DNA from: Bacteroidales bacterium
GTDB lineage: Bacteria; Bacteroidota; Bacteroidia; Bacteroidales; UBA932
DNA: 64,000 nt
Direction of reading: 5' to 3'
NCBI GenBank assembly: GCA_012744435.1
Contig: JAAYCA010000060.1
Location: 4,067-68,066, forward strand
Shown: one piece after another, positions 1 through 62,142 of the stretch
How positions within the stretch are numbered: the stretch's first letter is position 1
Layout of the letters: the number at the start of each line of letters is the position of its first letter
The notes under the pieces: model-generated
Database searches by the model: none
What the model was told of the DNA's origin: nothing
The model's input: only the letters and a program-made list of their open reading frames with translations
Program-made: the position numbers and the translations under genes

Positions 1-218
1 GCCGCGAGCTGGTTCGCCGGCTGCACCGGCCGCTCGTGAGCACGTCAGCCAACATCTCCGGCGAACCCACACCCGCCACTTTTGCGGAGATTCCGGAAGA
101 AATCAAGGCCGCCGTGGATTATGTCGTCCCGAAACCCTTCGGGAACGGCGCCACGGGCCGCTCTTCGCAGATAATCAAGCTCGGTCTGGACGGCGAGGTG
201 GAGATCCTCAGGCCGTAA
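1..218 (+). CDS. L-threonylcarbamoyladenylate synthase (TsaC/YrdC/Sua5 family), C-terminal fragment; 5' end lies outside the window
   Basis: The frame is open from the window edge. The product reads ..RPLVSTSANISGEPTPATFAEIPEEIK.., which is the YrdC-type TSAN.SG.P core. Stop TAA at 216-218. Confidence 0.7.
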   Translation, partial: RELVRRLHRPLVSTSANISGEPTPATFAEIPEEIKAAVDYVVPKPFGNGATGRSSQIIKLGLDGEVEILRP

Positions 219-1071
219 AAAGATACATGGCCGTGGCGGCGACGACCGCAGCGGTCTCGGTGCGCAGCCGGCTCTCTCCGAGCGACACCGGGATCCACCC
301 GGCACCCCGCGCCAGCGCCGCCTCCTCCGGACTGAAATCCCCCTCCGGCCCGATCAGGATGATAATCGGCCTCTCTTCCCCCGGCAGGCAGCTGTTGCCG
401 CAAACCTTCGCTTCGCTCATCCCTCCCACTGACTCCGTCAGCGGGCCCCTCCCATTTACGAGGCCATGGGTGGCCACGGGTTTGCCGGCAGCACTGCCTG
501 CCGGTTGGGAAGAGCCGTCCGGAATCTCCAGCTGGGATAGGGCAGCAGAAATCAAGGTCCGTTCGACATCGTCGAAGCAGTAACAAATGAGTTTCAGGGC
601 ATCGGCAGGAGCGGATGCGATGAAGTCGCGGACGCTCTGCGGCTCGGCGATCTGCGGGATGGCGGCCTTGAGCGACTGTTTGGCGGCGGAGAGAGCGATG
701 CGGCGCAGGCGGTCCGTCTTGAGAACCCTGCGCTCCGAGCGTTCGCCGATCACCGGCGCGATCACGTCCACGCCGATCTCCGTCGCTTTCTCCACGAACC
801 ATTCGTAGCGGTCGATGTTCTTGGTCGGGCAGACCGCCATCGTAAGCTGATAGGGATGCGCTCCGAAACCGGGCTCCTCCTGTATGATGCGCAACTCCGC
901 GCCCCGGGCGTCGGCCAGTTCCAGCACACAGCGGCAGAGCGTCCCGTGTCCGTCGATCACGGACACCTCATCGCCTGCACGGTGCCGCAGCACGCGGACG
1001 AGATGCGCGGACTCCTCCGGGTCCAGCCGGACCCGTCCGTCGCGGATATCTTCGGAATAAAACAGTTCCAT
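208..1071 (-). CDS. rsmE: 16S rRNA (uracil1498-N3)-methyltransferase RsmE, carrying an in-frame repeat insertion
   Basis: 287 aa. The N-terminus MELFYSEDI..RLDPEESAHLVRVLR and the C-terminal LIGPEGDFSPEE...ESRLRTETAA are typical RsmE/SPOUT blocks. An extra low-complexity segment is encoded by 381-504. Confidence 0.85.
   Translation of the reverse strand: MELFYSEDIRDGRVRLDPEESAHLVRVLRHRAGDEVSVIDGHGTLCRCVLELADARGAELRIIQEEPGFGAHPYQLTMAVCPTKNIDRYEWFVEKATEIGVDVIAPVIGERSERRVLKTDRLRRIALSAAKQSLKAAIPQIAEPQSVRDFIASAPADALKLICYCFDDVERTLISAALSQLEIPDGSSQPAGSAAGKPVATHGLVNGRGPLTESVGGMSEAKVCGNSCLPGEERPIIILIGPEGDFSPEEAALARGAGWIPVSLGESRLRTETAAVVAATAMYLFTA
381..504. repeat. MITE-like palindromic element, copy A, in frame inside rsmE
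   Basis: The terminal arms 381-406 (ccggcaggcagctgttgccgcaaacc) and 479-504 (ggtttgccggcagcactgcctgccgg) are inverted repeats. The core is nearly identical to the reverse complement of the core of 14281-14415. Confidence 0.7.
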
Positions 1072-13600: not shown

Positions 13601-13640
13601 CAAAGGTACATATCTTTTTTATATCTGCAAGTTTTTTTGC
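13601..13640 (-). promoter_or_regulatory. Bacteroidota sigmaA-type promoter candidate for efflux operon 1
   Basis: The minus strand has TAccTTTG (+ strand caaaggta at 13601-13608) about 28 nt upstream of the ATG. A TTG lies about 19 nt further upstream. Confidence 0.4.
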
Positions 13641-13700
13641 AAAAATCTTTCCCACTCCCCCACGAGGCCACCGGGTTGCCTGCGGCACTGCCTGTCGAGC
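13640..13700. repeat. Decayed, internally deleted copy of the palindromic element (copy C)
   Basis: The + strand tcccact..cccc.acgaggcca..ccgggttgcctgcggcactgcctg matches blocks of copy A (tcccact, acgaggcca, cgggtttgccggcagcactgcctg) in the same order. The left arm is not recognisable. Confidence 0.4.
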
Positions 13701-14140: not shown

Positions 14141-14887
14141 TTAAAGGTTTGGTTTTCTTGAGAACTCACAGCCGCACCAGGTCTGGTTGTAGAACCCCTG
14201 CTCCCGGATCACCTCGTTCCTCCGCTCCTGCAGCCCGCCTTTCCGCCAGTTCTGTGGCCAAAAGAGTACTGCCGTGGTCACTGCCCGGGGGCTGGTATTC
14301 AAGTCGGAAAAACCGTGGCCGCCCGTGGCCTCGTGAACGGGGGGGACCCGCTGCGAAGCAGTGGGGGGGATGAGCGAAGCGAAGTTTTGCCGACCTGCAA
14401 TACCAGCCCCGGCAGAAAAGCAGCCGGACGTTTCAGGAGGCAGTTCGCCGCTCCTGCTGCAGGCGATCTCCCCGGCGGCATTGACCTGGTCGAGATCCTT
14501 CCAGCGGGAAGAGGCGAGGGTGGTGGCGAGGACCGGAAGGCCGCGGGCCGCGGCATATCGGGCGGCGCGGCCGAGCCGGAAACGGAAACAGGCCGCGCAG
14601 CGGCCGCCGCGCTCGGGCTCGTCCTCCAGTCCGCGGACCGCATCCAGCCAGGCGTCGTGGTCGTATTCGTCTGCCACGAGCTCGACGCCCATCACCCCGG
14701 CATAGCGCCGCAGCTCCGCCAGGCGCAGGTCATACTCCGCGCGCGGAGTGATATTGGAATTGCTGAAGAACACCACCGGCCGGATCCCATTGTCCCGCAG
14801 GCATTCCAGGATGGCCCCGGAACATGGCGCGCAGCAGGCGTGGAGCAAGATTTCCCGGGCCCCGCCCGGTGTTTCGACCTTCAGCAT
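14141..14887 (-). CDS. queH: Epoxyqueuosine reductase QueH (DUF208), carrying an in-frame repeat insertion
   Basis: 248 aa with LLHACCAPCSG near the N-terminus, RCAACFRFRL, and a C-terminal FYNQTWCGCEFS (the conserved Cys-rich QueH blocks). An extra segment is encoded by 14281-14415. Confidence 0.85.
   Translation of the reverse strand: MLKVETPGGAREILLHACCAPCSGAILECLRDNGIRPVVFFSNSNITPRAEYDLRLAELRRYAGVMGVELVADEYDHDAWLDAVRGLEDEPERGGRCAACFRFRLGRAARYAAARGLPVLATTLASSRWKDLDQVNAAGEIACSRSGELPPETSGCFSAGAGIAGRQNFASLIPPTASQRVPPVHEATGGHGFSDLNTSPRAVTTAVLFWPQNWRKGGLQERRNEVIREQGFYNQTWCGCEFSRKPNL
14281..14415. repeat. MITE-like palindromic element, copy B, in frame inside queH
   Basis: 135 bp (45 codons). 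The arms 14281-14313 (ctgcccgggggctggtattcaagtcggaaaaac) and 14384-14415 (gttttgccgacctgcaataccagccccggcag) are inverted repeats. The core ccgtggccgcccgtggcctcgtgaacgggggggacccgctgcgaagcagtgggggggatgagcgaagcgaag matches the reverse complement of copy A. Confidence 0.7.
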
Positions 14888-15900: not shown

Positions 15901-15984
15901 GCGGCAGTGGTGAAATGGTAGACACGCTACTTTGAGGGGGTAGTGGGCGTTTGGCCTGTGTGAGTTCGAGTCTCACCTGCCGCA
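15901..15984 (+). tRNA. tRNA-Leu (anticodon GAG), type II with long variable arm
   Basis: Folded by hand. Acceptor GCGGCAG/CTGCCGC, D arm GTG..CAC, anticodon stem CTACT/GGTAG with loop TTGAGGG (GAG), long variable arm, T arm GTGAG-TTCGAGT-CTCAC, discriminator A. A TAttTTTG -7 box lies about 20 nt upstream. Confidence 0.9.
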
Positions 15985-61368: not shown

Positions 61369-62049
<681 letters not shown>

Positions 62050-62051
62050 GT

Positions 62052-62138
62052 GTTCCCTCCGGTCCATCTTCTGGACCGGAGGGAACGAAAACAGGGGTAA
62101 AATGCTCCTTCCGGTCCATCCGTTGGACCGGAGGAAAC
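62052..62138 (+). repeat. Two tandem related hairpins in the intra-operon spacer
   Basis: Hairpin 1 is gttccctccggtcca-tcttc-tggaccggagggaac (62052-62086, a perfect 15-bp stem). Hairpin 2 is ..tccggtcca-tccgt-tggaccgga.. (about 62105-62138, a 9-bp perfect core plus an imperfect extension). They share the core TCCGGTCCA/TGGACCGGA. Confidence 0.6.
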
Positions 62139-62142
62139 ACAG

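Follow-up and report, generated by a model that had tools for sequence, protein, structure and literature searches.

The stretch analysed here, referred to below as the window, comprises 64,000 nucleotides of a Bacteroidales bacterium (assembly GCA_012744435.1, contig JAAYCA010000060.1, positions 4,067 to 68,066), and it contains three copies of a short palindromic DNA element, one inside rsmE, one inside queH and a decayed one between genes. The features on which the argument is built are listed below with the evidence for each; labels of the form L006 designate loci of other genomes that were compared with the window.

208-1071, minus strand: rsmE (16S rRNA m3U1498 methyltransferase) open reading frame (ORF), 287 aa, host of copy 1 (ORF list, Pfam, homologue names, PDB 3kw2)
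373-514, plus strand: copy 1, whole palindromic element (gapped arm alignment, fold, covariance model match, absence from empty orthologues)
373-406, plus strand: 5' arm of copy 1, P0 (arm alignments)
407-478, plus strand: conserved core of copy 1, TTCGCTTCGCTCATCCCTCCCACTG..CAGCGGGCCCCTCCCATTTACGAGGCCATGGGTGGCCACGG (family alignment, pair counts, the sequence itself)
425-433/437-445, 451-455/466-470 and 462-466/471-475, plus strand: core helices P1, P3 and P2 of copy 1, respectively
479-514, plus strand: 3' arm of copy 1, P0 (arm alignments)
13640-13699, plus strand: copy 3, decayed and internally deleted, intergenic, downstream of an ABC-transporter ATPase gene (similarity over 32 nt at 84%)
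14141-14887, minus strand: queH (epoxyqueuosine reductase) ORF, 248 aa, host of copy 2 (ORF, Pfam PF02677 in two stretches, PDB 9dco)
14281-14415, minus strand: copy 2, whole element, with arms at 14384-14415 and 14281-14313 and core at 14314-14383 (blastn and nhmmer, fold, arm alignment)
14420-14449, minus strand: remnant of an older subfamily-2 element, consisting of an arm, GGCGAACTGCCTCCTGAAAC, and half of a left hairpin, GTCCGGCTGC (comparison with subfamily-2 copies in L006, L045, L001 and L012)

In the 287-aa product of rsmE, Pfam recognises PF04452 (RsmE) in two separate stretches together with PF20260, and the homologues are named RsmE. A first-pass annotation, made from the letters alone, had described here a segment with inverted arms at 381-406 and 479-504 that the rsmE frame crosses without a stop codon. 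Both arms were found as described (26 nt each, 72 nt apart), but 20 of the 26 positions are complementary (77%) instead of the 21 that had been counted, and a gapped alignment widens the pairing to 373-406 with 479-514. The frame is indeed uninterrupted: the ORF reads ...PAGSAAGKPVATHGLVNGRGPLTESVGGMSEAKVCGNSCLPGEERPIIILIGPEGDFS... through the element, whose own translation in the rsmE frame is ...SSQPAGSAAGKPVATHGLVNGRGPLTESVGGMSEAKVCGNSCLPGEE..., and the C-rich motif strand of copy 1 is the plus strand, hence antisense to rsmE. The outermost CTCTTCCC of the 5' arm repeats, in inverted form, GGGAAGAG, the host codons for Gly-Glu-Glu (GEE) that lie on the element's other side. On the rsmE-sense strand (375-510, minus), the segment folds into one long hairpin of -79.1 kcal/mol, compared to -55.8 +/- 3.5 kcal/mol for 200 dinucleotide shuffles, none of which was equally stable (z = -6.6), and the covariance model of the family described below scores copy 1 at 94.8 bits (395-490).

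The recurrence of this core inside queH, which had also been proposed from the letters, was borne out with the palindrome bounds as claimed: copy 2 matches copy 1 over 88 nt at 85% identity (blastn E = 8e-22; nhmmer E = 8e-14; match at 14290-14424), in the opposite orientation on the plus strand. Its motif strand is the minus strand and therefore sense to queH, in whose frame it reads ...SAGAGIAGRQNFASLIPPTASQRVPPVHEATGGHGFSDLNTSPRAV...; it folds with z = -4.9 and is scored by the covariance model at 97.5 bits (14302-14395). Both host genes lie on the minus strand, and copies 1 and 2 are thus oppositely oriented relative to their genes, both being read through. The remnant, which translates as GELPPETSGC, lies directly upstream of copy 2 in gene sense; since a subfamily-2 arm and half-hairpin precede copy 2 in this way, copy 2 is either nested in an older element or a substitute for one. 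The 20-mer of the remnant is also found beside the copy at L040, and "ELPPETSG" recurs among QueH alleles. A reading of L040 as an oppositely oriented queH allele was rejected, its gene being XerD-like and the common 20-mer being the remnant subfamily-2 arm: at this locus (L040 1965-2300) the copy lies in the N-terminal part of a gene for a XerD-like tyrosine recombinase, and a 1-nt frameshift ~50 nt downstream of the copy could mean a pseudogene or an assembly error.

The decayed version suspected near 13640-13700 is real as well. Copy 3 keeps TCCCACT..CCCCC..ACGAGGCCAC plus a 3' arm of the rsmE-copy type, and the syntenic intergenic spot in Bacteroidales bacterium WCE2004 (L070:6962-7058) carries a full copy. 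WCE2004, which we take from its name to be a cultured rumen isolate, carries another copy in queH, for which KTVATHGLVNGGDPTVRLGGMSAEREVL is one example of a predicted junction or insert peptide.

The size of the family was estimated by scanning one genome per species (185,579 species) for exact matches to a 21-mer from the core. This census gave 58 loci with elements of 107-225 bp, 57 of them in metagenome-assembled genomes (MAGs) of rumen Bacteroidales from cattle, buffalo, goat, yak and deer, with a maximum of seven loci in one MAG; one of these MAGs is named Candidatus Cryptobacteroides. The remaining locus (L034, CAJOFW010000104.1) belongs to an Oscillospiraceae MAG, in which a 9.7-kb contig enters Ns inside the element, so that mis-binning of a Bacteroidales contig is the probable reason. 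Built from 33 copies, a covariance model picked up all of these again among its 72 matches in 512 kb, and it also found ~10 further, more diverged copies in ~450 kb of flanks that had been chosen without regard to them, which corresponds to about one copy per 45 kb and thus to dozens per genome. With this many copies at the nucleotide level, the segment is a dispersed repeat rather than a domain specific to RsmE, as the first-pass annotation had argued. That annotation also recognised no described family of Bacteroidota: full-text literature searches turned up known analogues and no description of this repeat family, and Rfam 15 contained no match to the element at gathering score or at E < 10 (for 340-545 of the window, at best <=13 bits against cut-offs of 55-81). 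No match was found in collections of phages, plasmids and viral contigs either. The palindromic element is real, apparently undescribed and similar in kind to the Rickettsia palindromic elements (RPEs).

Members of the family share a core of ~70 nt, composed of TTCGCTTCGCTCATCCCYCCCAC, a P1 hairpin, GGGYCCCYCCC, RTTYAC, a P2 hairpin (GTGGCC ACGGGC GGCCAC) and GG. P1 is variable in length and has, in several copies, a homologous extension of ~45 nt, and in subfamily 2 the left module is swapped for a clean small hairpin (GTCCGGC-TGC-GCCGGAC) with the remainder kept. The general plan is thus a long closing stem round three small hairpins with C-rich spacers such as CCCTCCC between them. The closing arms, of 20-45 bp, are self-complementary in nearly every copy and differ in sequence from locus to locus: nearly all arm positions hold 1 bit of information or less, apart from a weak positional conservation (G at -20, CCCCGCAAAAC at the inner end), whereas the centre of the element is invariant. 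Complementarity of the ends could have dissolved on careful alignment; it holds and covaries, with compensatory changes in all 12 scored arm pairs. Within the core, six of the seven P2 pairs show compensatory changes (92% of cells paired; variants GTGTCC/GGACAC, AGCC/GGCT and ATGGCC/GGCCAT), as do two of the five pairs of P3 (CCCRY with RYGGG; 98% paired). None of 500 shuffles reached the observed scores, and slid controls dropped to 35-46% paired. Because P2 and P3 overlap, the core would form either a tight pseudoknot or alternative folds.

Several sequence traits of the element turned out to be less general or less informative. Arm mismatches show no significant bias between G-T and A-C (18 vs 32), and an assignment of the folding strand from this bias was consequently rejected; on the motif strand they are mostly pyrimidine-pyrimidine, partly through a direct YCCGCTT motif present in both arms of one subfamily. 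As a subfamily trait present in ~15 of 52 copies, a direct CCGCTT flank is disqualified as a universal direct target or duplication flank. A conserved outer terminal motif, CCGGCAGG, was discarded since its presence is weak and variable, and a hammerhead-like reading of GGGAUGAGCGAAGCGAAG was discarded since it fails at core positions. As a separate observation, CCCTCCC occurs twice in the core of every copy (e.g., window 421-455), which places four G-tracts (GGGAGGGG..GGGAGGG) on the complementary strand, their middle loop containing a hairpin, and makes this a candidate G-quadruplex / i-motif; in the "C" subfamily, both CCCTCCC tracts carry a T>C change together.

About half of the copies lie within long open frames, and at least 20 Pfam-verified housekeeping genes carry in-frame copies. 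Their products are RsmE, QueH, a FAD-dependent protein, a PP-loop/TilS-like enzyme, AroE/AroK, TldD (between domains 1 and 2), TrmB, PrmC (two loci), YgiQ (two), a HemW-like radical-SAM enzyme, DnaX (two), Fmt, RNase R, a U32 peptidase, a FolC-type Mur ligase, RecG and SpoU methylases (two). The motif strand is sense in 14 and antisense in 7 of the Pfam-verified copies, and the three sense frames are all in use along with two antisense ones, giving such different core readings as QNFASLIPPTA..VPPVHEATGGHGF, SSLRSSLPLRSACGPLPF, LRFAHPSH, ..VATHGLVNGRGP..GGMSEAKV, ..GHPWPRKWEGP..GRDERSEV and SSLRSSLPL... Since both orientations and several frames are in use, it is the nucleotides and not a peptide that are conserved. 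Every Pfam-verified genic copy leaves the host frame open, and only genic full elements show a modest excess of open frames (3.48 vs 2.91, p = 0.003), as expected if stop-bearing copies do not survive in genes.

Presence and absence of the element are polymorphic among close relatives. RsmE orthologues are bimodal in length, with 234-252 aa or 273-299 aa. Empty orthologues that are 85-87% identical run from ...LQP straight to (A/E)ERPI.LIGPEG, while filled alleles gain AGSAAGKPVA...KVCGSSCLP, which corresponds to both arms plus the core; on DNA, a simple filled allele reads CGCCCG / GCAGGCAG...CTGCCTGC / CGGCGGAG. The segment is thus lineage-specific and is located directly before the LIGPEG strand, where it had first been placed, according to the alignments with both the orthologues and PDB 3kw2. 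The latter, the closest solved RsmE, aligns to residues 2-170 and 235-281 only, and the insertion falls in its 19-residue linker, where the protein of the window has 65 residues. PDB 9dco (QueH) likewise aligns to residues 13-140 and 207-243 only, with 67 residues here vs 8. QueH homologues include empty ones (187-200 aa) as well as sense, antisense, subfamily-2, remnant and combined alleles, all in one loop. Besides rsmE and queH, empty orthologues exist for a spacer between convergent PMI-like and ung genes; where the element is absent, these genes have an overlap of 20 nt, and both later take TAG stops from it.

Other insertions were seen at or beside these sites. One filled RsmE allele (P0018, alignment columns 201-222) has an extra 19-residue insertion (KLACSPTLCTPFQGDISLRAG region) within the element, and P0086, P0090 and P0080 have other, unrelated-looking inserts at the same RsmE site. 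Family-1 and subfamily-2 copies are paired in opposite orientations within one gene at L001 3014-3253 (FAD-dependent protein), L045 2166-2451 (DnaX) and L012 3602-4258 (TrmB), and such closely spaced pairs mean that insertions cluster in the same permissive linkers. A G-rich structured repeat of another kind (GGGGGTTTCGGGGG..CCCCCGTCCCC..GCAGGGGG) adjoins a family-1 copy in ygiQ and a U32 peptidase gene (L024 ~640-780, L042, L041 ~2330-2470) and is followed by a second 3' arm copy, the whole composite being in frame. Tandem GTCATCCCGAGCG-type units, read as CHPERSS repeats, adjoin the element at L035 ~1000-1110 and replace its right half at L057 ~700-620; they may represent a further family of small hairpin repeats in Bacteroidota.

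Once in place, the element can be inverted where it stands, a feature that the first-pass annotation had missed, and this is clearest in queH and in the PMI/ung spacer. The queH alleles of the window and L069 (both 255 nt) are identical at 164 of 255 positions when compared directly and at 220 of 255 after one block is reverse-complemented; this block ends inside the outer arms, and the flanks, including the older remnant, are collinear. In the PMI/ung spacer of L010 and L075, whose PMI-like proteins are 97% identical, the outer repeat is common to both and the element unit is inverted. The whole rsmE element, arm asymmetries included, is flipped between L059 and the window, and both orientations are found at one site in ygiQ (L013/L036/L043/L058 vs L024), prmC (L011 vs L044) and the SpoU methylase gene (L052 vs L050). 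On inversion the downstream frame is kept because the length is unchanged, and only a stop-free new frame is required. The element also decays and grows. At the rsmE site, L068 retains a stub (11-bp stem and 3-nt loop), L067 a solo arm, and L066 and L063 little or nothing, while outward growth shows as inverted host codons at the ends of the palindrome, with CGGCCGCTCT / AGAGCGGCCG (= ERP) in L026 and GCACATTCGCT (= AHSL) / AGCGAATGTGC in L028. Between L075 and L076, which encode an identical PMI-like protein, synteny is lost exactly inside the right arm (L076 ~2190-2250), with ung following in one and another gene in the other, which suggests ectopic recombination between copies.

We consider it probable that copies 1-3 are members of a family of small (about 115-190 bp), non-coding, palindromic and selfish repeats that has become dispersed over the chromosomes of a rumen Bacteroidales clade, and that the palindrome is then prone to template switching. 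According to this proposal, GC-rich and mostly stop-free copies whose length keeps the frame and whose insertion point lies in a permissive surface linker would be translated as an extra loop of ~40-60 residues, as in RsmE and QueH; that the insert ends up in the protein is our inference. The long arms would then be a hot spot for replication template switching and for recombination, processes that may keep the arms near-perfect, invert the core in place with the downstream frame kept and the loop recoded, and extend the palindrome outward by inverted copying of the host flank, whereas removal of the element would leave stubs or solo arms. Template switching between inverted-repeat arms at replication is reported to make arms homogeneous, to invert spacers and to expand repeats (PMC8604942, PMC13100816, PMC8794818), and it accounts for inversion in place, outward growth and near-perfect arms with no dedicated enzyme needed; by analogy, the flips seen here would be due to template switching rather than to an invertase. 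The conserved multi-hairpin core may itself be a cis-acting structure that a mobilising enzyme recognises on single-stranded or cruciform DNA, and, between rounds of movement, growth outward combined with internal deletion may turn the arms over.

A number of observations weigh against this proposal. Arms differ at one and the same site (hemW-like gene of L020 vs L028; several queH alleles), which could mean repeated insertion at a hot spot, in which case some of the apparent flips would be independent insertions. The empty rsmE and PMI/ung sites contain neither arm, and the arms have no matches in nearby DNA and were therefore not copied from neighbours; two loci of one MAG that share the same rare core variant (L004 and L005) have unrelated perfect arms of 31-32 bp, and the proposal does not account for the origin of new arms. 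Neither a transposase nor a partner gene nor an autonomous relative was identified at the loci examined, and the case for mobility is purely distributional. The core has 3.74 open frames vs 4.39 in dinucleotide shuffles, so its scarcity of stops does not go beyond composition, and the AlphaFold model of RsmE (26-sequence alignment) is too poor to read (mean predicted local distance difference test score 50.6). Three related ideas were abandoned on these grounds: arms as pre-existing target hairpins (insertion into a terminator or repeat loop), since the empty rsmE and PMI/ung sites are armless; one arm as host DNA and the other as its inverted copy from insertion, which fails for the bulk of the arms since both RsmE arms are extra residues without nearby matches and the host-derived portion is limited to the outermost few to ~11 nt; and selection for stop-free core frames, which the shuffles do not support, the antisense strand having one closed frame per half.

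An unlikely but more far-reaching alternative is that the element represents one of two new things. Either it moves by structure-directed transposition of single-stranded or cruciform DNA of an undescribed kind, with the core as recognition module and the closing stem rebuilt or replaced at each site, or it flips so often within populations that the copies would be mobile "recoding cassettes" that provide two loop isoforms for dozens of housekeeping enzymes.

It is quite unlikely that the copies are programmed intragenic invertons, i.e., that the arms are invertase sites between which the core is reversibly flipped as phase variation for two isoforms of many enzymes, with a mobile element as the vehicle. 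Recoding intragenic invertons are known in Bacteroides (PMC10028968), and such a system would explain the two orientations at orthologous sites of rsmE, queH, ygiQ, prmC, the SpoU methylase gene and the PMI/ung spacer, including the flip between strains with a 97% identical flanking protein, as well as a downstream frame that is kept on inversion by construction. However, the arms differ from locus to locus and thus offer no common recombinase site, and template switching at close inverted repeats flips spacers without an invertase (PMC8604942). Moreover, the protein database holds no flipped twin of the window's own alleles, the nearest flipped QueH coming from a different lineage, and the hosts are housekeeping enzymes, not surface or regulatory genes.

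A classic MITE (miniature inverted-repeat transposable element), that is, a deletion derivative of an insertion sequence (IS) that is cut and pasted by a transposase binding its terminal inverted repeats and that makes a target-site duplication, is improbable. The first-pass annotation had called the element MITE-like, and its look justifies the term: it is small, non-coding, dispersed and flanked by inverted repeats. In one subfamily, different loci (two in one MAG) have ~22-bp inner arms in common, so that arms can move together with the core, although every one of these loci has an outer inverted repeat (8-11 bp) that is not shared, and the weak conservation at -20 and at the inner arm end points the same way. 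As a statement of mechanism, the term is doubtful. The arms are the least conserved part of the element and its centre is the most conserved, whereas a MITE has conserved ends and a free middle, and conserved terminal repeats are not found. The two comparisons of filled and empty sites gave no clear duplication: at rsmE an ambiguous palindromic CCGG alone could be duplicated, and at PMI/ung there is no clear direct repeat, the flanks bearing an inverted repeat. No long autonomous form with an ORF between the halves turned up in the 58 loci or in the 512 kb of flanks, nor did a parent IS or a transposase, and phages, plasmids and viral contigs yielded no copies.

Finally, a functional structured RNA in transcripts (for example a site for processing or for RNase III, a hairpin with a regulatory role or an excised intron-like segment, with the core as an RNA fold) is highly improbable, since its covarying helices, possible pseudoknot, strongly stable folds and the extra G-U-containing pairs that RNAalifold proposes on the motif strand (18-24 with 54-59) are set against copies in intergenic DNA and in both orientations to host transcription, host frames whose openness in every Pfam-verified genic copy would be needless if the segment were removed, arm mismatches that are G-U-enriched on neither strand, the lack of any Rfam match even at E < 10, and Watson-Crick covariation that is equally expected of single-stranded DNA hairpins.

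Two other features of the window may be mentioned. The spacer that follows the ORF at 61369-62049 contains, at 62050-62140, two tandem hairpins with 14-bp stems (TCCCTCCGGTCCA-loop-TGGACCGGAGGGA), which resemble the CCTCCGG arm motif of the family and could be an arms-only stub, a pair of REP-like (repetitive extragenic palindromic) sequences or a terminator pair. A tRNA gene at 15901-15984 (51.5 bits) is the sole Rfam match within the 64 kb.

In-frame selfish palindromes have until now passed for a peculiarity of Rickettsia and a small number of other reduced genomes. In the present case, gut anaerobes that are abundant, free-living and GC-rich carry dozens of them in each genome, within core enzymes such as RsmE, QueH, DnaX, RecG, RNase R, TilS and Fmt. 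The consequences are bimodal orthologue lengths, split profile matches and, for flipped alleles, a loss of 10-15 points of identity that distorts clustering and phylogeny, and copies can also contribute stop codons and bring about rearrangements. As a natural experiment, the family bears on how much loop insertion enzymes tolerate, and it connects recoding inversions with a mobile repeat. How an element with a conserved centre and variable arms moves is a concrete and testable question, for which the named strain WCE2004 makes experiments possible.

Among known systems, the closest analogy is with the RPEs (Ogata et al. 2000), which PMC10969869 presents as palindromes of ~100-150 bp, tens per genome, in frame in unrelated housekeeping genes at sites that the protein fold tolerates, lacking a transposase of their own and regarded as selfish. 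This analogy, drawn already from the letters alone, is apt: the elements described here are palindromes of ~120-150 bp in frame at fold-compatible positions of unrelated housekeeping genes, empty orthologues exist, and no transposase of their own was found at the loci examined. However, the RPE host is a reduced intracellular alphaproteobacterium, while the hosts here are free-living GC-rich rumen Bacteroidales. A single conserved peptide also fails as a criterion here, at least five frames being read, and the rumen element has variable arms, a conserved centre and documented in situ inversions; it is by description, not by sequence comparison, that it is set apart from RPEs. Bacterial MITEs that fuse with ORFs (Coxiella QMITE1, intragenic ERIC, Anabaena MITEs) are likewise small and non-autonomous, with inverted repeats and in-frame fusions (PMC10969869, PMC5896051), but their terminal repeats are conserved throughout the family, and target-site duplications and a parent IS that can be recognised usually go with them; for the rumen element, none of these was found.

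The rumen element also resembles REP/REPIN-RAYT (REP-associated tyrosine transposase) and IS200/IS605 systems in having hairpins rather than terminal repeats, no clear target duplication and a strand-specific motif (YCCGCTT on both arms, in one subfamily). REPs, however, are extragenic, with a conserved GTAG/CGTC head, conserved stems and a variable loop (PMC3733652), whereas the rumen element is about half intragenic, with variable stems and a conserved loop region. No TnpA or RAYT gene was linked to the copies, RAYT not having been searched for genome-wide, and by analogy this kinship is a lead, not membership. In structure, the rumen element is an intragenic inverton of the recoding kind: the recoding invertons of Bacteroides (PMC10028968) share with it a segment flanked by inverted repeats inside a gene, present in both orientations and recoding without a frame break, but they are single-locus, invertase-driven and flip within populations, while here a multicopy mobile repeat flips between genomes only and no invertase is implicated. 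Template-switch quasipalindromes show the same arm homogenisation, spacer inversion and outward growth, coding sequence included (PMC8604942, PMC13100816, PMC8794818), and the mitochondrial coding palindromes of Nematomorpha (PMC6649704) are similarly long, near-perfect inverted repeats tolerated in ORFs; both are nonetheless local processes on ordinary sequence that give no account of a core common to dozens of loci. In-frame selfish palindromes as such are thus known, and what is new is their occurrence in this phylum and lifestyle, their scale in core enzymes, their coupling to recoding inversions and the combination of a conserved centre with variable arms.

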